A stretch of DNA of 64,000 nt, from the sequence record LC765218.1; one strand, written 5' to 3'. The notes below the pieces were generated by a model. The model was not told the origin of the DNA. It saw nothing but the letters and a program-made list of their open reading frames with translations, and made no database searches. The stretch comes from Pseudomonas phage BRkr. Shown piece by piece: positions 3,050 through 62,725 of the stretch. The number at the start of each line of letters is the position of its first letter. Position 1 is the stretch's first letter. Made by a program: the position numbers and the translations under genes.

Positions 3050-3489
3050 GTGCTTTCATTCCTCAATGGCGTCGTGACACCAATAACATCGACCATAAAT
3101 ACGGCTTCGAACTGGCTGCATACGGTAACACCAACGGTTCCGGTATCTATGCTTTCATCGAACGTCACGTCAAATACGTAAACAAGAAAAAGAAACAGGA
3201 ACATGATGAAGTTATTCAAGTAATTCATCTTGGTAAACCGTATATCCGTAACTGGGTACATTACCCGGTAATCAATTCTACTGATCTCGGTTTGTTGTTC
3301 GGTCATGATGATGACATGCTTGACGATGCTTACAACCGTATTCAAACTGCGGAGTACGTATCGGTAGAGTTGATGGAATCTATTTCAAAAGAATATCAGG
3401 TCTATATCACAGCTGTGATTGACGATATCAAATACGTGTTCAGTCCTGAACGCACATTCAAGTCTGATGAGGGTTATGAAAATGGCTAA
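3046..3489 (+). CDS. Hypothetical protein, 147 aa. Start moved to the ATG that overlaps the upstream stop as ATGA.
   Basis: Same frame as track ORF 3031..3489. The ATGA start/stop overlap is typical of this block. Confidence 0.5.
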   Translation: MSAFIPQWRRDTNNIDHKYGFELAAYGNTNGSGIYAFIERHVKYVNKKKKQEHDEVIQVIHLGKPYIRNWVHYPVINSTDLGLLFGHDDDMLDDAYNRIQTAEYVSVELMESISKEYQVYITAVIDDIKYVFSPERTFKSDEGYENG

Positions 3490-4952: not shown

Positions 4953-5546
4953 ATGAAAAAGCTTACTCTGGAAGCCCTCCGAGGCAAACTACATGCAATG
5001 GCTTTTCTGCGGGTCAACTATCATGGTTGGATCATTCAACGTAATCGTGCAGCTGGCTACGATTTGATTAATATCGTTTATGACGATACCACTATCCTGG
5101 TAGGTACAGACGATCCCAAGCGGATTGGTTCTTTCAACAAATGGATGTCGGGTGTAGAGAAAGGTTATCTCGAACCGGTTAATGCCACCATTCGAAAGAT
5201 GTATTTGTCTCCTGAAGCTTTAGTCATGAATGGTGATTCCGAGGGTATGGATCTGGATGATCACCTCGGTTTCATCGGAGACGTACTTGGTAAGAATATC
5301 CAGGTCATAAAAGATGCTCGTCGTGAAAACAGTTTTGGTCATTATGTTCTAAAAGATGACAAGCTGTGGTACGTACACTACATGCCAAGTATCTACAAAG
5401 TCAATACGGGTGAAATGTTGTTCACCTGTTTTGAAGGTGAATACAAAAGTATTCCAGAATATCCGCAAACTTACGCTCCGGTAAGAATGCAGTTCAAGGT
5501 CGAATATAACCTTTCTGGTCGAGTGGAGCATCATGATGGAGACTAA
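4953..5546 (+). CDS. Hypothetical protein, 197 aa.
   Basis: TAAGGAACTAAA-ATG ribosome-binding site. Confidence 0.6.
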   Translation: MKKLTLEALRGKLHAMAFLRVNYHGWIIQRNRAAGYDLINIVYDDTTILVGTDDPKRIGSFNKWMSGVEKGYLEPVNATIRKMYLSPEALVMNGDSEGMDLDDHLGFIGDVLGKNIQVIKDARRENSFGHYVLKDDKLWYVHYMPSIYKVNTGEMLFTCFEGEYKSIPEYPQTYAPVRMQFKVEYNLSGRVEHHDGD

Positions 5547-6042
5547 AAAATCGACAAAGACACGTCGTCAAATCGCTGCATTTAAAAGAGCATTCGAATC
5601 ATGGATGGTGACGATTCGTAAGTTTCATTCTTACTCTGGTAAAGGTACACCAGATGTCAGTGTGATGACCGATCTCCTTCATTGCCATAGGAATCTTCTA
5701 TGTGTAGCGAAAGAAAACGGTATCTACATGGACGTGATGGGAGTAGATCCTGCTAACCACACTGTCTATGAACATGCGAGTTGGTTGCTTTCGTATTCCT
5801 ATTGGGACACGATCGTACATCTGAACTTTCAACTACCAAAGAACAAGTTTAAAATCTGGTCAGAACATCCCGTTAGCGAGAGACGTGCTTTCGGGAAAGC
5901 ACTTAATGTTCTTGCACTGGCTTTCAAACATTACGATGAACACAAAGAACTCCTCCGTGAGTTTAGGGATATTGAAAATGGCAAAAACGCAAAAGCAGAA
6001 AGCGCTGGAAGCAGCAACCCGGAAGCTGATCAAGTTCTATAG
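5533..6042 (+). CDS. Hypothetical protein, 169 aa.
   Basis: Start overlaps the previous gene's end. Long ORF. Confidence 0.5.
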   Translation: MMETKKSTKTRRQIAAFKRAFESWMVTIRKFHSYSGKGTPDVSVMTDLLHCHRNLLCVAKENGIYMDVMGVDPANHTVYEHASWLLSYSYWDTIVHLNFQLPKNKFKIWSEHPVSERRAFGKALNVLALAFKHYDEHKELLREFRDIENGKNAKAESAGSSNPEADQVL

Positions 6043-6424
6043 TGATACGTTTCCGATGTTGATCGTAGCTATCGAAATGTGCGAGGGTGATGGTTCCGAC
6101 CATCGCCTTCGTGCGGTATTCGATGCCTATAAAAAGACCTGTAAGATGGCAGAAGAGGCAGGAGTTGATCTTAGCCTCTATGGGGTCAAGCTAACTGACG
6201 TTGATACATTCACTAGTTTCCGCTGGTTCATCGAAGGTGACTATATTTGGGACATGATCAAGAAGCTCAATAAGGCGAAATATGATCAGGTTTCAGATCT
6301 TCCTCGCCTGACCGAATGGAGTGAGTTAGACGGCCATCAAAAACTTCAGTTCGCTCAAGGTCGTAATTACATCATCGATCGGCTTAAAGAAAAAGCCACT
6401 TGCGACCGATTCAAAAACTATTAA
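5978..6424 (+). CDS. Hypothetical protein, 148 aa, N-terminus MAKTQKQKALEAA. Overlaps the end of 5533..6042 by 64 nt.
   Basis: Same frame as track ORF 5885..6424. The ATTGAAA-ATGGCAAAA initiation region is near-identical to that of 3482. Confidence 0.4.
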   Translation: MAKTQKQKALEAATRKLIKFYSDTFPMLIVAIEMCEGDGSDHRLRAVFDAYKKTCKMAEEAGVDLSLYGVKLTDVDTFTSFRWFIEGDYIWDMIKKLNKAKYDQVSDLPRLTEWSELDGHQKLQFAQGRNYIIDRLKEKATCDRFKNY

Positions 6425-6431
6425 AAGGAGA

Positions 6432-6953
6432 TTGAAAATGACTAAGACTCTTCATGTCGTACGTGTCCGGGACGGTATCGTCGATAGCCTCAATAACGAG
6501 GGTTTGTGGATCGACAAACATGTAAACTGTCTTGAAGACAAATGGGAAGCTTACAAGCAGACCGTTCAGTTTCAAAACATGAACTGGGGTACTCTGTACT
6601 TCGTTAGCGAGGTCGATCCGAGCACTGGTGGTGACCTTACTCCTTATCGTTATCATGAGGTATGGATCTGTCAGCGAGGTGTTGTACAGAAGCTGGATCT
6701 GGTCGGTGATCTCGAAACTGGTATGATTGGTCCTGACCATGTCGTTGCGATTGTAACCACAAACGACGGTATAGAATATGGTTTCGTAAACAGTGTCTGG
6801 GGTGATCGTCTGGATCACAGCCATTACTACGGAGATGCTATTATGCTCCCGTGTGAAAATGCACAAGAGGCAGCAGCAGTAAATCGTATTCTGGAGAAAC
6901 TCTCGAATGGGATTACTCTGTCGGTTCCTCTTGTAATGAAACGGATTAAATAA
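6432..6953 (+). CDS. Hypothetical protein, 173 aa.
   Basis: AAAAGGAGATTGAAA-ATG ribosome-binding site. Confidence 0.6.
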   Translation: MKMTKTLHVVRVRDGIVDSLNNEGLWIDKHVNCLEDKWEAYKQTVQFQNMNWGTLYFVSEVDPSTGGDLTPYRYHEVWICQRGVVQKLDLVGDLETGMIGPDHVVAIVTTNDGIEYGFVNSVWGDRLDHSHYYGDAIMLPCENAQEAAAVNRILEKLSNGITLSVPLVMKRIK

Positions 6954-14505: not shown

Positions 14506-14927
14506 TGGCTTCTCAACTCATTGTTGTCGATCTCACTAAAGGTGGGCAAAAAGTCGACTTCAGTGAGTTGACTAGAGAGCCCACTGATAGTCTAATGTTC
14601 TATGTTGGAGAGGAACATGAGGCGGCCCATCTACATCAATTCTCCTATAACCCAGAATTCAGTAACTGGCAGAAACTAGAGTTCTGTATTTTCTGGGATC
14701 GTCAACATCGTCCTACAGCGGAAGATCCTCGTGTTGAAACTGACACTGAGTTATACATCCGTAAATTATGTAGACAATACGAAGTTGCCATCGATGGGTA
14801 CATGTTAGGTGTTAAGCACTTTGGACAACGTACTATCGTTGAGTTCAAAATGAAGGAAGAGATAGCTACTCCTCTAACTTTAGATTGGACAAAGGTCGAA
14901 CCTCCACCTAGGGAGGTAATCGTTTAG
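14505..14927 (+). CDS. Hypothetical protein, 140 aa.
   Basis: Start overlaps the upstream stop (TAATG). Confidence 0.55.
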   Translation: MASQLIVVDLTKGGQKVDFSELTREPTDSLMFYVGEEHEAAHLHQFSYNPEFSNWQKLEFCIFWDRQHRPTAEDPRVETDTELYIRKLCRQYEVAIDGYMLGVKHFGQRTIVEFKMKEEIATPLTLDWTKVEPPPREVIV

Positions 14928-15098
14928 TTAAAGGTTACGCACTATCATATGCGTTTCCTGATCCTTTACGATAGCTCTTTTACAATTTGGTTAAGCTGGG
15001 CTGAAATCCAGCGATCGACACGATGGGTTAGAGTCCCATCACCTTTAGGGGTCTTCCATCGGCTGATCCCTGTGACTAGTGTCACAACCAACCTTGAG

Positions 15099-15133
15099 CT
15101 CCCTCCCCTTGATCGGGGGAGGGGTTTATTTTG
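15099..15133 (+). terminator. Canonical rho-independent terminator CCCTCCCC-TTGATC-GGGGAGGGG followed by TTTATTTTG.
   Basis: GC-rich 8-9-bp stem plus a T-tract. Confidence 0.65.
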
Positions 15134-15157
15134 TCTCTCGTCAATAGGAACCTTCAA

Positions 15158-15625
15158 ATGGCAGTAACTCTTAAATTCCCTTTTATGCCGTCTCTTGAGC
15201 CAGCTGAGCTTACGGCTGTCATTCGCGATATCTATCTTGATCAATGCGCGGAGAAAGGCACGACTCCTCATCCCGAAGCATTTGAGCATCAGCCGGTTGT
15301 CCATGTAACGAATATGGTACATGGCGAGGGAGAAGATGTTCACTGGGCAGAAGATAGCGATAGTGAGAATCTACATATCTGCTTTACCTGCCCGCTGACT
15401 GGCGCACTTGCTAAGGTCGTCCAGCCTCTCAATTACACTGCCCCTATGAACAAGGTGTGTGTACGTCTCTGGATTGAGCATATGCTGCTCACCATGTTGG
15501 AACTTTTGCTGTTTACTCAAATGCAAGAACAAATTACAATAATGTCCAATGCAGCAAGCGAACGACGTACTATCATAACCAAATCCATCCATGCAAAGAA
15601 GGAGCAACTCGATGCAGCTCAGTGA
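15158..15625 (+). CDS. Hypothetical protein, 155 aa. Start reset downstream of the terminator at 15099-15133.
   Basis: Same frame as track ORF 15131..15625. AGGAACCTTCAA-ATG ribosome-binding site. Confidence 0.5.
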   Translation: MAVTLKFPFMPSLEPAELTAVIRDIYLDQCAEKGTTPHPEAFEHQPVVHVTNMVHGEGEDVHWAEDSDSENLHICFTCPLTGALAKVVQPLNYTAPMNKVCVRLWIEHMLLTMLELLLFTQMQEQITIMSNAASERRTIITKSIHAKKEQLDAAQ

Positions 15626-16142
15626 TCTACGTATCCCCACTGAGATCATTCCTATTGGTCTGTGCTGTCTTTGGGCGCGCGAACAATACGTTGATCCAAA
15701 TGGCAATTATCTATTCACTACCAAAGAGGTTATTAGAGGTATCCATCTGGATAAGATGGTGGAAGAGTTTAATAAAGCTATGCGTGAACATTTCTATCAT
15801 AGCAACCACATCGAGATCACTCTCCATGGTATCGAAATCAAAGATAACAAAGTCCATTACTTTCATCAAGAACCTGCTGTTGAGTTCTATGATAAAGTGA
15901 AAGCACAGTATTGCAACGTTGAGCTGGCTCGTTATGATGCTGACGTAATGGACAAAGACCTGTTCTTTGATATGGTGTCGAAAGAAATCGCTGACCTGAG
16001 TAAGATGATCATGCAGCATATCTACTTTAAGTTTGACCGAGTACAAGCGGAGACCTGGTCTCGTTACCTGCTAGCACGTGGATCTAATAAAAGAAACGGG
16101 GCTGGTCTTGAGTCAGTTGACGTAGAAGTTAAACTCTCGTAA
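15612..16142 (+). CDS. Hypothetical protein, 176 aa.
   Basis: Same frame as track ORF 15591..16142. AAGGAGCAACTCG-ATG ribosome-binding site. Confidence 0.5.
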   Translation: MQLSDLRIPTEIIPIGLCCLWAREQYVDPNGNYLFTTKEVIRGIHLDKMVEEFNKAMREHFYHSNHIEITLHGIEIKDNKVHYFHQEPAVEFYDKVKAQYCNVELARYDADVMDKDLFFDMVSKEIADLSKMIMQHIYFKFDRVQAETWSRYLLARGSNKRNGAGLESVDVEVKLS

Positions 16143-16538
16143 AAGAATACTTGAGTTGTAATGATATACGAGGACTAATGTCCCAACAGAACAGAGGTCA
16201 CCCGGATCATCTCCCCTAAGGCTCCCCGTCGCCATATTAGGGTGCCGCAGTGACCTCACCTTATTCCCACTAGCTTTCGGTGTAAGTGGGCTCTCTCCGC
16301 ATAAGATCGGAGAGACTAACAGCGATCCATGCCAAAGGATCAAGCCGAAGCAGGTATATTGACTTGGCCGTCTTTATATCTGAAGTTACGACGGTTACTA
16401 CCTCCAGTTGAGAGGGGTATCCCCGAGTGGCGTTACCTAACCAGATGGGTGCCGACCCGTAATCGGTGCCTTAGCTGGCCAGCTTTCTGGTAAGGTAATC
16501 TAACGAATAGCCCGCTCCGTTGAGGAGCGGGTTTTATT
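16143..16538 (+). ncRNA. Candidate structured noncoding RNA locus of about 400 nt. It is ORF-free and locally GC-rich, and ends in a canonical intrinsic terminator.
   Basis: No plus-strand ORF of 60 aa or more between 16143 and 16571. Inverted repeats GAGGTCAC...GTGACCTC and CTCTCTCCG-CATAAGAT-CGGAGAGAC. A GCCCGCTCC-GTTGA-GGAGCGGGT stem plus TTTTATT at 16510-16538. Confidence 0.35.
16510..16538 (+). terminator. Canonical rho-independent terminator GCCCGCTCC-GTTGA-GGAGCGGGT followed by TTTATTCC. Ends the structured noncoding locus.
   Basis: 9-bp GC stem plus a T-tract. Confidence 0.65.
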
Positions 16539-16571
16539 CCGTCTCAGCTTGTAAACAGGAGAATATAAAGA

Positions 16572-17249
16572 ATGACTATTGTCATATGGGATGGTAAGGA
16601 TCTTTTGGTTGATCGAGTTACTACGATCACCCAGAGCGATATCACTGGAGAGGATGGTACACCACAACCATACTACGTGGAACTGGACAAGTCCAAGATC
16701 TATCTTGCTTCTGAGAACAAATGGGAAGCTAAAGTCTGGGGTCGAGCTATAAAAGCATTTACAATGGTTGGTGATACGGAACATCGTCATTGCTGGCTGA
16801 ATTTCTTGGAGACAGGAGATGATGTACATAGTCTAGCAGAGACCGCAAAGAATTTCCAACACCTGCTTACGCCTAATGCCGAATACATCCTCATCGATGA
16901 AGATAATGTTCTTCATGTGTTCGAATCAACCCATGACATGTTTAGGAGCAATTATTATTCCACGCCTGCACGTAAACCAATCATCTTTGGATGCGCTGTA
17001 GCAGTTGAACTGCTGAATAATGTATTCACTTCATCTGAGAACAAACTGAGTCCGTTGGAATGTATGGTTCTAGCGCAAGCGCATTATCCCGTTTTGGGTA
17101 GGCGGTTTGACCACTGGAATGCTGAATCTAATATACTCACACGTGACAACGACCTTAGTGATCGTGCACGTCATTGGGTTGCTAGTCGTGCGGTGAAAAA
17201 GATTTCGGTTAACTCTAAACCACGCCCAGTTAATATCGTAAATAGGTAA
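16572..17249 (+). CDS. Hypothetical protein, 225 aa.
   Basis: AACAGGAGAATATAAAGA-ATG ribosome-binding site. Confidence 0.6.
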   Translation: MTIVIWDGKDLLVDRVTTITQSDITGEDGTPQPYYVELDKSKIYLASENKWEAKVWGRAIKAFTMVGDTEHRHCWLNFLETGDDVHSLAETAKNFQHLLTPNAEYILIDEDNVLHVFESTHDMFRSNYYSTPARKPIIFGCAVAVELLNNVFTSSENKLSPLECMVLAQAHYPVLGRRFDHWNAESNILTRDNDLSDRARHWVASRAVKKISVNSKPRPVNIVNR

Positions 17250-22053: not shown

Positions 22054-22119
22054 GAAATTTGAATTGAGTACTGGAATCTACATCACTGAATACTCTCGTA
22101 TACTATTAGACACGAAGTA

Positions 22120-23700
22120 TTATTTTATTTCGTATTCGACTACGGGTGTTGTTTTAGATACATCACCACCAAATCGATAGACTCCATCGGATACAACTAA
22201 CATCTCTTCATACGAAGAAATAGCTGGGAAGGTATCTCCGATTAGTTCTGGCTCTTTATTAAGTTGCACCAAAGCTAATCGTGTTCCGGAGTTATTCGTC
22301 ACATAGATGTTATTACCGAATATGATTCCTCTATACGTCGAATATTTGTTGGCAGGCGCATTCAAAGGAATGACTTCAGTTGTACTAAAATCAGAACTAA
22401 TCTTTACGTAGTCCGTTGGCGAGATGTTTGTCCCACCTATTGTTAATCTACCTTGAGATGCAACGATAACTAATTCACCATTATCGTTAAATCCTAAATT
22501 ATGATGCCATAATTCAATTGGTAGAACATCAGCAATCATGCCGATTTCATATGTCGTAAGGTTAACTGTTATAATGTTCTTATGGATTTTATCACTGCGT
22601 CCAGAGAAACCACCAACAATGTACAGTATATCGTCTTTAACTATACTAGCTGTACGTTCGATGTAATATGCATCGACTAAACCTGGAATAGCAGCTAGCT
22701 TTTTAGTTTCCCATGTGTCGGTAGCTATCGTGTAAATATAAATAGTCGGACCAGTAGACAATGGGTTACCATGCAAAATCAACTTACCATTATTGTAAAC
22801 CATATTGGTTGTAGTTGTCTCGCCTTGGAACGGAACTGTAGATGGTAACTTGGTCCATGTTTTAGTATCTCGGTCTAACCGATGTAAGTCGGACATGAAC
22901 GTAGTAGGTCCTGTTGTATATCCACAGGCCATGTAAATATCGTTGTTATCCGAATCATACGCGAGTACTGGCATCCCACGTTGCGGCGGTGGATTTACAG
23001 TCGACAATACAGAGGTAATACCTTTAAGTTCCTTTGGCGGAATATATTCAAGTACCGGTCGCCATCCACGATAACTAGTAGCTTCTGTTGGCGGATGACC
23101 ATCGTAAATATAAAGGCCATTCTTTGCCTGAGGATGAGTTGTCGATGGTGAAAACTGTAGGTAATTACCATTGGTATTTCTATTAGCCGCCCAGTTATAA
23201 CTTCCGTTTCCGGCGCCTATAAGTTGTTCATCTGTGTACTTTGCCCAACTTCCTTTAGTTGTAACATTGCCAAAAATATCCCACAATTCAGAACCTTCAT
23301 TACCTTGAGTAGCGATATCCGAATAAGGATTTACTCCAGCATTCATTAGACGAACTTTAAACATGTTCCCATCGATTACAATAACTTTACTACCATCTAT
23401 TAAACCAGCCTCGTCAAGTTGGTTTGGACTAATGGAATGGAGAATAGCTGTCTTCGAATAATAAAGAATAACATTATTTCTAGATACTTTAATCCAACCA
23501 GCATCTGTATTTATAGTACCAATGGAGTCAAGCTCAACAAGTGTTCTTAACTGAGGGTAAGTTATAAACTTGTCGCTTGTCAACTCACCATACAGACCAA
23601 GTGTCGAATCACCTTGTTCAAAGGTAGATGGACCCGGTAGTTTATTTCCTGTAGCCTTAATGAGTGCAGACAATAATGATTCGAACATAATTTTATCCAT
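22120..23700 (-). CDS. Kelch-repeat beta-propeller protein, 526 aa. It has an N-terminal fibre-like module (MFESLLS…GDSTLGLYGE…GWRPVLEYI) followed by Kelch blades.
   Basis: Repeated blade motifs of the form hhYhhGG. N-terminal 35 aa and a GWRPVLE motif are shared with the 216-aa protein at 43297..43947. The MFExLLS N-terminus is shared with all Kelch paralogs. Confidence 0.75.
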   Translation of the reverse strand: MDKIMFESLLSALIKATGNKLPGPSTFEQGDSTLGLYGELTSDKFITYPQLRTLVELDSIGTINTDAGWIKVSRNNVILYYSKTAILHSISPNQLDEAGLIDGSKVIVIDGNMFKVRLMNAGVNPYSDIATQGNEGSELWDIFGNVTTKGSWAKYTDEQLIGAGNGSYNWAANRNTNGNYLQFSPSTTHPQAKNGLYIYDGHPPTEATSYRGWRPVLEYIPPKELKGITSVLSTVNPPPQRGMPVLAYDSDNNDIYMACGYTTGPTTFMSDLHRLDRDTKTWTKLPSTVPFQGETTTTNMVYNNGKLILHGNPLSTGPTIYIYTIATDTWETKKLAAIPGLVDAYYIERTASIVKDDILYIVGGFSGRSDKIHKNIITVNLTTYEIGMIADVLPIELWHHNLGFNDNGELVIVASQGRLTIGGTNISPTDYVKISSDFSTTEVIPLNAPANKYSTYRGIIFGNNIYVTNNSGTRLALVQLNKEPELIGDTFPAISSYEEMLVVSDGVYRFGGDVSKTTPVVEYEIK

Positions 23701-23938: not shown

Positions 23939-23996
23939 ATGTAAAATAGCGCTTAACGCTAATTCTTACATATAATCACTATACCAGTATTTCTTT

Positions 23997-26860: not shown

Positions 26861-26904
26861 GAAATCTGGTATAGTCTTACATAGTATTACTATACCAGTA
26901 TTTA

Positions 26905-30161: not shown

Positions 30162-30213
30162 ATCGAACCTAGGATATATAAATAGATCGCTAGTTCGATC
30201 TATGTGACGGAAT

Positions 30214-30237
30214 AAAGAGTAGCCGGAGCTACTCTTT
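30214..30237 (-). terminator. Hairpin AAAGAGTAGC-CGGA-GCTACTCTTT directly downstream of the GTT tRNA.
   Basis: 10-bp stem. Homologous to 29527-29551. Confidence 0.5.
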
Positions 30238-30242
30238 GAAAT

Positions 30243-30329: not shown

Positions 30330-30340
30330 AGAAAACTATC

Positions 30341-30374
30341 CAGTCGCTTGCTCTACCGACTGAGCTATCGCGGA
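30341..30374 (-). tRNA. A 5' tRNA fragment (acceptor 5' strand, D-arm and anticodon 5' stem). It pairs with the 3' fragment at 29558-29590.
   Basis: The reverse complement reads TCCGCGA-TA-GCTC-AGTCGGTA-GAGC-A-AGCGA-CTG. No matching anticodon 3' stem (TCGCT) occurs anywhere between the fragments. Confidence 0.5.
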
Positions 30375-30470
30375 AGAATTATTAACAACTTCTTTCTTGT
30401 AGAAAAATCACAAGTAACTGAATTACAGTATTTCACTACATATTATTACAATCTGAGTTAGATAGTTATT

Positions 30471-62436: not shown

Positions 62437-62442
62437 ATAACT

Positions 62443-62469
62443 GGGGAGCTTCGGCTCCCCTTTTATTCC
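62443..62469 (+). terminator. Hairpin GGGGAGC-TTCG-GCTCCCC followed by TTTTATTCC after phuZ.
   Basis: Perfect 7-bp stem, UUCG loop, T-tract. Confidence 0.6.
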
Positions 62470-62484
62470 GTCTGGAGGTTTCAT

Positions 62485-62725
62485 GAGTTGGATCTTAGCT
62501 ACCATTGTCTCTACAGGAGCTATTGGCGAATTACCTGTAGTTAAAGAAGAAGAAGTTTCTGTGTCTTCCATTGAGGTGTGTAGAGCCATCATCGACCAAC
62601 ACAGTTCTTTGTATACCCGGAATAATTGGAATATCAGTTACCACCGTGGCGATAACAGTGAACTCCACGTTATAAACATGAATCGAACGACAAAGATTAT
62701 ATTTGTTTGTAAGGAGAAGAAATGA
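62485..62725 (+). CDS. Hypothetical protein, 80 aa.
   Basis: GGAGGTTTC-ATG ribosome-binding site after a hairpin. Confidence 0.4.

Follow-up and report, generated by a model that had tools for sequence, protein, structure and literature searches.

A family of predicted structured noncoding RNAs in phiKZ-like Pseudomonas jumbo phages

What occupies the gap between the stop codon TAA 16140-16142 and the start codon ATG 16572 in a 64-kb stretch of Pseudomonas phage BRkr DNA (LC765218.1; the whole stretch of 64,000 nucleotides (nt) is hereafter the window)? An initial annotation, made from the letters alone, had proposed for this gap a noncoding RNA gene with its own terminator, such as a small regulatory RNA or a ribozyme. 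Judged by its sequence, the phage is a Pawinskivirus-type (PS119XW/PA1C), phiKZ-like Pseudomonas jumbo phage of ~300 kb. We find that the locus very probably holds a real, selected and structured noncoding RNA element, predicted to span 16171-16538 (+; ~368 nt, with the 5′ end set by a promoter motif and the 3′ end by a terminator). It belongs to an RNA family that is not in Rfam 15 and is conserved in phiKZ-like, nucleus-forming Pseudomonas jumbo phages. The proposed noncoding RNA gene is supported because base pairs covary across genera, no reading frame is conserved and a promoter-like block lies upstream, whereas the ribozyme option received no support.

The covarying core and its distribution

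The element is organized around a conserved core, a four-helix rod at 16184-16267 (+) that scores 77.4 bits with a covariance model of the family, R1. Helix 1 (16194-16201/16250-16257) and helix 2 (16203-16205/16245-16247) lead to an internal loop, AUCAUCUC (16206-16213, +), which lies opposite a UG bulge (16243-16244), and helix 3 (16214-16219/16237-16242) and helix 4 (16220-16222/16231-16233) carry an apical 8-nt loop, UCCCCGUC (16223-16230, +). The AUCUC of the internal loop and the CCCGUC of the apical loop are invariant in every member (alignments A2 and A4), whereas the helix closing the apical loop covaries, appearing as GGC/GCC, UACC/GGUA, GCU/AGC, CAAG/CUUG or GCG/CGC. Directly 3′ of helix 1, all members keep a single-stranded tail, ACCUUAUU in the window (16258-16265, +) and CCACCUAUU as the family consensus, which is invariant or nearly so. 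The window core carries the full set of family motifs, i.e., the rod, AUCUC, the UG bulge, CCCGUC and the CCACCUAUU tail. Across 13 distinct sequences, compensatory changes are present in 16/20 core pairs, and 88.8% of the alignment cells are paired, versus 40-47% when the partners are slid by 1-3 columns. The observed covariation is reached by 0/500 shuffles, a control inflated by relatedness, as every member belongs to a single phage lineage; this bias affects neither the slid control nor the number of pair types per position.

The whole locus is predicted to fold stably. The minimum free energy of the plus strand is -148.9 kcal/mol (z = -5.0 relative to dinucleotide shuffles, with 0/100 shuffles equaling it), compared with z = -3.5 for the minus strand. 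Nested inverted repeats had been noticed at the outset, and all three named pairs are indeed present: GAGGTCAC (16194-16201) with GTGACCTC (16250-16257), whose arms are 48 nt apart; TCTCTCCG (16292-16299) with CGGAGAGA (16308-16315); and the terminator arms CCCGCTCC (16511-16518) and GGAGCGGG (16524-16531), followed by TTTTATT (16532-16538). A fourth pair with 13-nt arms, TTACCTAACCAGA (16433-16445) and TCTGGTAAGGTAA (16486-16498), had been missed. The predicted RNA opens with a 5′-terminal hairpin, GGAC-UAAU-GUCC (16172-16183, +), which is GGAA-ACAU-UUCC in PhiPA3, a compensatory change of C-G to A-U, and GGAG-UGAAUG-CUCC in 201phi2-1.

Poor conservation in relatives had been named as an outcome that would speak against an RNA gene; the core is instead present in 17 distinct phage sequences, including PhiPA3, phiKZ, Psa21, RVTF4, D6, 201phi2-1, Viktualia and uncultured contigs. 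The 501 bases around the locus are 95-100% identical to those of phiHQ, HHBS36_1, PS119XW, PA1C and phiLBG22 and 89% identical to HPP-Temi, and a 160-nt part shares 78% identity with PhiPA3. Upstream lie homologues of phiKZ gp287 and gp287.1, and synteny via the gp287 homologues located short versions of the RNA in phiKZ (between gp288 and gp289; ~AF399011 263174-263291), Psa21, RVTF4 and D6, and longer versions in Viktualia and 201phi2-1 (~EU197055 287058-287543, ~485 nt). PhiPA3 has a 416-nt ORF-free gap (ORF, open reading frame) at the equivalent place, between gp354 and gp355, which can be aligned to the locus over its entire length and shows conserved blocks and compensatory changes. Five uncultured jumbo-phage sequences came to light in a pattern scan of IMG/VR, three more in a second scan, and the Logan contig L321 in a search with the protein encoded downstream (gp289-like, see below).

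In ~2.6 Mb of loci, the only matches of model R1 at E <= 1 are the relatives, all of which it recovers; it finds exactly one core copy in the window and gives 0 matches in 1.4 Mb of unrelated DNA. It also detects members outside its training set, namely the L-numbered sequences L321 (45 bits), L367 (66 bits), L325 (49 bits) and L360 (30 bits). Three looser scans, among them those with ATCTCYC..CCCGTC..GNTGC in metagenomes and CCGAAGC..GAAGTTA in viral sequences, yielded 240 listed matches, of which 200 were screened with R1 without revealing a member; among the remaining 40 (L161-L200), a cruder pattern-and-helix filter flagged nothing family-like.

The locus shows little sign of coding. In line with the initial annotation, there is no plus-strand ORF of at least 60 aa in 16143-16571; the ORFs between TAA 16140-16142 and ATG 16572 encode 22, 41, 54 and 25 aa. 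The minus strand has a 76-aa ORF with a TTG start (16113-16343) and a 109-aa ORF (16500-16829) that overlaps mostly the next gene. The GC enrichment reported for the gap is real and moderate: the GC fraction is 0.495-0.515 across 16100-16599 and 0.37-0.45 in the coding flanks, and 14900-15500 is as GC-rich as the gap. A frameshifted protein gene, the other outcome that would have told against an RNA, was sought by tblastn with peptides from all six frames. The close relative HPP-Temi was matched alike in every frame, and PhiPA3, 201phi2-1, Viktualia and L026 gave short weak matches only (best E ~0.001). Beyond the nucleotide similarity, no reading frame is conserved; the frames are also broken by indels between relatives. 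Small hypothetical coding sequences (CDSs) have been annotated inside the RNA in HHBS36_1 (CDS0035, locus 3185-3310), HPP-Temi (CDS0041/0042, locus 2667-2884) and Viktualia (CDS0139, locus 1086-1367), whereas the PS119XW, PA1C and PhiPA3 records leave the gap without any annotation. Since no frame is conserved in the six-frame search, these calls are most likely gene-caller artefacts.

The 3′ domain and two size classes

The family exists in two size classes. The short form, consisting of core and terminator in ~120 nt, is found in phiKZ, PA7, Psa21, RVTF4, D6 and several uncultured phages, whereas the long form, found in the window group, PhiPA3, 201phi2-1, L325, Viktualia, L367 and L026, has a 3′ domain of 250-380 nt between core and terminator and reaches ~370-500 nt (390-500 nt in PhiPA3, 201phi2-1 and Viktualia). 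L321 is intermediate between the two. The 3′ domain is an accessory module that has been lost in phiKZ, Psa21, D6 and RVTF4.

The 3′ domains share the blocks CUUUCGG, CCGAAGC, GAAGUUA, GUGGCG and CUGGCCAG in this order, and many of the intervening helices are retained with altered sequence. The first hairpin, CCCAC...GUGGG (16266-16290, +), presents the invariant CUUUCGG in its loop and has a compensatory CCCUC...GAGGG stem in PhiPA3. Its UUUCGG could pair with CCGAAG at 16345-16350, as predicted by RNAalifold for the 201phi2-1 clade; both arms are invariant and covariation is uninformative here. The next hairpin, UCUCUCCG-8 nt-CGGAGAGA (16292-16315, +), has the same stem and another loop in PhiPA3, and the following one, GAUCC-AUGCCAAA-GGAUC (16324-16341, +), is kept there with a different sequence, GCAGCU-CGCCA-AGCUGC. 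A conserved block, AAGCCGAAGC (16342-16351, +), contains the CCGAAGC that is invariant in the window, PhiPA3, 201phi2-1, Viktualia, L325 and L367. It is followed by the hairpin CAGGUAUA...UAUAUCUG (16351-16382, +; alignment helix 11), in which the window group and PhiPA3 differ at both partners of four pairs, and whose equivalent within the 201phi2-1 clade is CACUG/CAGUG versus CGCUG/UGGCG. At 16382-16431 (+), the conserved GAAGUUAC and the pairing of GUUAC (16385-16389) with GUGGC (16427-16431) surround a variable hairpin; the counterparts of this pairing are GUUAC/GUAGC in PhiPA3 and, with compensatory changes, GUUAU/AUAGC in Viktualia and L367.

The last element before the terminator is a branched helix, UUACCUAACCAGA/UCUGGUAAGGUAA (16433-16498, +), which encloses two hairpins, one of them AGCU-GGCC-AGCU (16473-16484, +). 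In this helix, HPP-Temi has CUGGA/UCCAG in place of CCAGA/UCUGG (window form UUACCU..CCAGA), PhiPA3 has CGUUUUCCU/AGGAAAACG as well as CACUGGCCAGUG in place of AGCUGGCCAGCU, and the 201phi2-1 clade shows CUGAC/GUCAG versus CUGGU/ACCAG. In the full-length alignment of Pawinskivirus and PhiPA3 sequences, 19/123 predicted pairs change in a compensatory manner and 93.5% of cells are paired, versus 37-45% with slid partners. Covariation against related phages, which the initial annotation had put forward as a check, is found both in the core and over the full length.

Model R2, built from 201phi2-1, L325, Viktualia and L367 only, relates the window 3′ domain (16342-16506, +) to that of 201phi2-1-like phages: it matches 16342-16506 from its first to its last position, with 16.1 bits and a rough E-value of ~0.005 in 176 kb, and its top matches are the window and phiLBG22. 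Because R2 did not recover PhiPA3 or HPP-Temi, homology of the 3′ domain across clades is supported but not strongly.

The 201phi2-1-type long forms have a further insertion of ~100 nt between the 5′ hairpin and the core (201phi2-1 locus 6088-6190, Viktualia locus 1040-1130 and equivalent stretches in L367 and L325), which holds two more hairpins, e.g., CCCGUGAU...AUCACGGG and UCACUGCUCUGGUAGUGA.

Transcription signals and the gp289-like gene

Upstream of the predicted RNA, the 27 nt directly 3′ of the preceding stop codon form a promoter-like block, AAGAATACTTGAGTTGTAATGATATAC (16143-16169, +), with an A-rich run, TACT at 16148-16151 and then GTAATGATATAC. This block is conserved in all members and near-invariant in PhiPA3, 201phi2-1, Viktualia, Psa21, RVTF4, D6 and phiKZ. 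In phiKZ middle promoters, TACT is centered 22 nt upstream of the transcription start site and preceded by an A-rich repeat (PMC8244752), a description that the block matches; by this spacing, transcription would start ~22 nt past the TACT center, near 16171-16172. The promoter motif AATACTnnnnnTGTAATnnTATA recurs three times on the minus strand of the window (22099-22121, 23969-23991 and 26880-26902), 20-45 nt upstream of the genes for tRNA-Thr, tRNA-Leu and tRNA-Tyr, and the copy before tRNA-Thr also shares the TATACGAG start. In agreement with this arrangement, a tRNA gene of 201phi2-1 is reported to be under a middle promoter (PMC11512511), and the phage studied here seems to express its stable RNA genes from a single class of promoter.

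At the other end, the textbook intrinsic terminator seen at the outset stands up to analysis: GCCCGCUCC-GUUGA-GGAGCGGG(U) is followed by UUUUAUU (16510-16538, +), and the 3′ end of every family member is a GC-rich hairpin, its stem altered by compensatory changes, followed by UUUAU. The junction that follows (16539-16571, +) runs from CCGUCUC to the AGGAG (16557-16561) ahead of ATG 16572: the terminator is succeeded by UUCCGUCUC and, 18 nt on, by the AGGAG of the next gene. No separate promoter motif was found between terminator and ATG 16572, so expression of the next gene would rely on read-through. The succession of terminator, TTTATTCCGTC and Shine-Dalgarno (SD) sequence recurs at 62440-62485 (+) and at 30206-30240 (-, after a tRNA gene). 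Because it occurs both between co-directional genes and after a tRNA gene, it is a general feature of the phage and not special to the RNA locus. Genes behind such terminators would depend on read-through, which suggests leaky or regulated termination as a general expression strategy of this phage.

The gene at 16572-17249 (+) encodes a 225-aa homologue of phiKZ gp289 and PhiPA3 gp355, with further homologues in Psa21, RVTF4, D6, Viktualia and L321. The protein has no Pfam or PHROG function, a database search with it returned only two homologues, and the literature searched makes no mention of gp289 or PHIKZ289. The only PDB entry matched by its profile was the protease HslV, at E = 1.2, and a single-sequence AlphaFold model was unusable (pLDDT 36). 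The gp289-like proteins start with Met-Thr (Met-Ser in PhiPA3) and have invariant Asp7, Asp14, Gly57 and Gly67; an N-terminal-nucleophile hydrolase would suit the Met-Thr/Ser start and the faint HslV match, and may serve as a lead. L321, an AT-rich relative, has two tandem gp289-like copies (5317-5988 and 6001-6675).

How might these parts work together? The explanation we favor, in which our confidence is evenly balanced, is a stable, terminated, protein-binding RNA with read-through into the gp289-like gene. The phage non-virion RNA polymerase would start at the middle-class promoter 16143-16169, of the class shared with the phage tRNA genes, transcribe ~368 nt and mostly stop at 16510-16538, leaving a stable RNA with the 5′ hairpin at one end and the terminator hairpin at the other. 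Invariant loops on varying helices are the signature of a specific recognition surface, and AUCUC and CCCGUC would form such a surface, most likely for a protein. Polymerases that pass the terminator would express the gp289-like gene, the SD sequence of which follows directly. We infer the transcript ends, the stability, the protein binding and any action in trans from these features. A stable noncoding RNA is favored because of the tRNA-type signals, the 5′ and 3′ hairpins, the conserved accessory domain and the persistence of the RNA without the gp289-like gene.

Several observations weigh against this explanation. The gp289-like gene lies downstream of the RNA, on the same strand and with no intervening promoter, at 13/18 loci (2 of the 18 are too short to judge this neighbor), an arrangement that a cis-acting leader would explain just as well. 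Complements of the invariant loops, GGGAGATG and GACGGGNA, are not enriched in the window, and no partner or target was found there. The single lineage behind the shuffle controls and the relatives missed by R2 count on the same side.

The main rival, which we regard as possible but doubtful, is that the element is a cis-acting 5′ leader or attenuator of the gp289-like operon: by binding to the core, a metabolite or protein (perhaps the product of the gp289-like gene) would set terminator passage or downstream translation, and the short RNA would be a by-product. As expected of a riboswitch or attenuator, a conserved structured element with covarying pairs and invariant loops stands upstream of a gene. 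The gp289-like gene starts 67-1500 nt past the core in the loci that have it, the terminator ends 33 nt before the start codon without a promoter motif between, and many premature terminations in 5′ untranslated regions have been reported in phiKZ and 201phi2-1 (PMC10914365; PMC11512511). Read from the sequence, the anti-SD-like CUCC of the invariant loop could pair with the downstream GGAG. However, the RNA persists where the gp289-like gene is not nearby: none lies within 3.5 kb in 201phi2-1 and L367, or within the 2.2 kb available in L045. As 201phi2-1 and L367 keep the long RNA, it is not merely the leader of that gene. Furthermore, no antiterminator was found in nine short forms, in which core and terminator fold independently and, with the 3′ arm withheld, 0-4 (once 8) of the 10-14 nucleotides of the terminator 5′ arm are paired; this favors constitutive termination. 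In the long forms, inspection by eye revealed no conserved complementarity competing with the terminator, and the conserved accessory domain of 250-380 nt goes far beyond what an attenuator needs. The junction of terminator, TTTATTCCGTC and SD sequence, being generic in the phage, does not single out this gene either.

The favored stable RNA may be extended for the long form, which has about a dozen helices in 370-500 nt and ranges from Pawinskivirus to 201phi2-1. It might be a large structured RNA of nucleus-forming jumbo phages that acts in trans, as a subunit or scaffold of a ribonucleoprotein (RNP) or as a decoy for a host factor, with the co-located gp289-like protein as a possible RNP partner; we consider this extension unlikely, if attractive.

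The remaining rivals fare worse. The core might be a processive antitermination RNA that binds the phage polymerase and overrides the following and later terminators, as HK022 put, a cis-acting antitermination RNA, does in its phage. Its position after a promoter and before a terminator resembles that of put, and it is likewise structured with invariant loops; yet the 64-kb window, in which terminators often separate co-directional genes, contains the core only once, the operon behind it is short and no known antitermination RNA in Rfam is similar, which makes this reading quite improbable. That the region codes for small proteins or is a decayed gene remnant, as the 41- and 54-aa plus-strand ORFs, the 76-aa minus-strand ORF and some automated calls could suggest, is very hard to believe given the lack of frame preference and a substitution pattern that compensates base pairing across frames broken by indels. 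A DNA-level element (replication origin, packaging site or protein-binding site), for which the wealth of inverted repeats including the palindrome AGCTGGCCAGCT (16473-16484) could speak, is just as improbable, as many conserved G-U/U-G pairs would turn into A-C mismatches on the opposite strand, folding is stronger for the plus strand, and the orientation is always that of the flanking genes within the frame of promoter and terminator.

Comparison with known RNAs and a second candidate

Does the element belong to a known RNA class? The suggested Rfam scan was run (Rfam 15, 4227 models) on the window and 8 related loci and returned only tRNAs at the gathering threshold; with relaxed filters on 381 nt of the locus, the best match was Thr_leader, at 21.8 bits against a gathering threshold of 55, and it rests on the terminator hairpin. 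As initially stated, there is no tRNA or tmRNA at the locus (ARAGORN made no call in 14900-16600, its 7 tRNAs all lying in other parts of the window), nor a group I core, with no Intron_gpI match even at E <= 10. A group I/II intron was rejected, as no model matched at E <= 10, the upstream ORF ends at TAA 16140-16142, the downstream ORF has its own SD sequence and ATG, and the element is equipped with a promoter and a terminator of its own; PhiPA3 keeps the RNA and the downstream gene without conserving the upstream one.

A 5S rRNA or mimic was considered because CCGAAG, GAAGUUAC and GAGUGGCG occur in 5S order. It was rejected: when seven long forms were aligned locally with E. coli 5S, z values were -0.5 to 0.9 (dinucleotide shuffles), the Rfam 5S model had no match, and GUUAC pairs with GUGGC by covariation, which is not the 5S topology. 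Mimics of RNase P RNA, SRP RNA, 6S RNA, T-box and CRISPR repeats, all raised by motifs seen by eye, found no support in Rfam, and the T-box-like AGGGUGGUACC of 201phi2-1 is not conserved in Viktualia or the window. For a type III toxin-antitoxin RNA (ToxI-like), no tandem repeats were found in 14800-16700 at a minimum score of 30.

Comparison with characterized phage RNAs underlines both the likenesses and the differences. HK022 put shares with the core a length of 70-90 nt, conserved internal loops and the place between promoter and terminator; it differs in showing no sequence or model similarity and in acting with the host polymerase, whereas the polymerase here is the phage multisubunit enzyme, and the RNA here is single-copy per genome region with a large 3′ domain. 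The species 1 and 2 RNAs of T4 are stable RNAs of unknown function next to tRNA genes. Like them, the present RNA is a non-tRNA phage RNA, apparently stable and predicted to share its signals with tRNA genes; unlike them, it lies outside the tRNA cluster (~5-16 kb away, on the other strand), is much longer and is conserved with a defined core. GOLLD and ROOL are large structured phage-associated RNAs in Rfam, likewise of unknown function. The long form resembles them in being phage-carried and several hundred nt long with many covariation-supported helices, whereas it is smaller, has no match to their Rfam models, has a short core-only counterpart and is, as far as found, restricted to Pseudomonas phiKZ-like phages. 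Terminator-type riboswitches and leaders similarly consist of a conserved structured 5′ element followed by an intrinsic terminator, but here neither an antiterminator nor a leader peptide was found, and the Thr_leader match is the terminator hairpin.

The closest relatives in layout are the noncoding RNAs mapped by ONT-cappable-seq, comprising 17 candidates in phiKZ derived from 5′ untranslated regions or prematurely terminated (PMC10914365) and 11 small RNAs in 201phi2-1, including the conserved sRNA005 (PMC11512511). Abundant short terminated 5′ RNAs are thus documented in both phages (PMC10914365; PMC11512511). They come from the same lineage and have the same order of promoter, short structured RNA, terminator and gene, and one of them was noted as conserved between genera, like the family described here. 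The published conserved example, however, adjoins (upstream) the tail gene gp182/gp277, unlike our locus. The 17 candidates may include the ~120-nt phiKZ member located between gp288 and gp289, whereas long forms of 370-500 nt would be excluded from sets limited to RNAs <250 nt, and these sets describe no family, structure or covariation for this locus. The RNA belongs to the phage noncoding RNAs made from a promoter-proximal terminator, of which the long form is a more unusual kind. As far as we found in the literature searched, the family structure, the long form and the link to the gp289-like gene have no earlier description.

Two further features of the window deserve mention. A second ORF-poor, GC-rich, structured stretch with a terminator at 15100-15124 lies at 14928-15130 (+), two genes upstream of the RNA, immediately 3′ of the gp287.1-like gene. 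The stretch is shared with HPP-Temi, PhiPA3, D6, Psa21 and RVTF4, as a conserved element, and in reduced form with phiKZ and L321. Its features include a conserved 5′ block, UCCUUUACGAU.GCUCUUUUACAAUUU, and a hairpin like a tRNA T-arm, GAUGGGUUAGAGUCCCAUC (15023-15041), which is GUUGGGUUCGAGUCCCAAC in PhiPA3 and GUAAGGUUAGAUUCCUUAC in D6. Compensatory changes are present in 10/19 predicted pairs, neither ARAGORN nor Rfam made a call there, and the HHBS36_1 record annotates a 72-aa CDS over the equivalent stretch. The stretch probably represents another noncoding RNA family of these phages. In 201phi2-1-type phages, the RNA described above lies directly after the gp287.1 homologue, i.e., in the place taken by this second stretch in the window. 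The other feature is TTCCGCGATAGCTCAGTCGGTAGAGCAAGCGACTGG at ~30330-30375 (-), directly upstream of an 87-nt gene that ARAGORN called tRNA-Asn; it resembles a tRNA 5′ half (acceptor strand, D arm and start of the anticodon stem), no 3′ half was called, and a fragment of a tRNA, a tRNA that is split or contains an intron, or a mis-called gene could each explain it.

The phiKZ-like phages, candidates for phage therapy, build a nucleus-like shell and come with RNA polymerases of their own, and their RNA biology is barely charted: the published work on phiKZ and 201phi2-1 names dozens of short terminated RNAs but assigns them neither family, structure nor function. One such RNA is now defined as a family that spans at least 7 named phage groups and several uncultured contigs, with a covarying core, two size classes and a consistent genomic partner in the gp289-like gene. 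Its covariance model can be used to annotate new genomes and flags probably spurious CDS calls. If the long form is indeed a trans-acting component of an RNP, it would add to the few large structured RNAs of unknown function.

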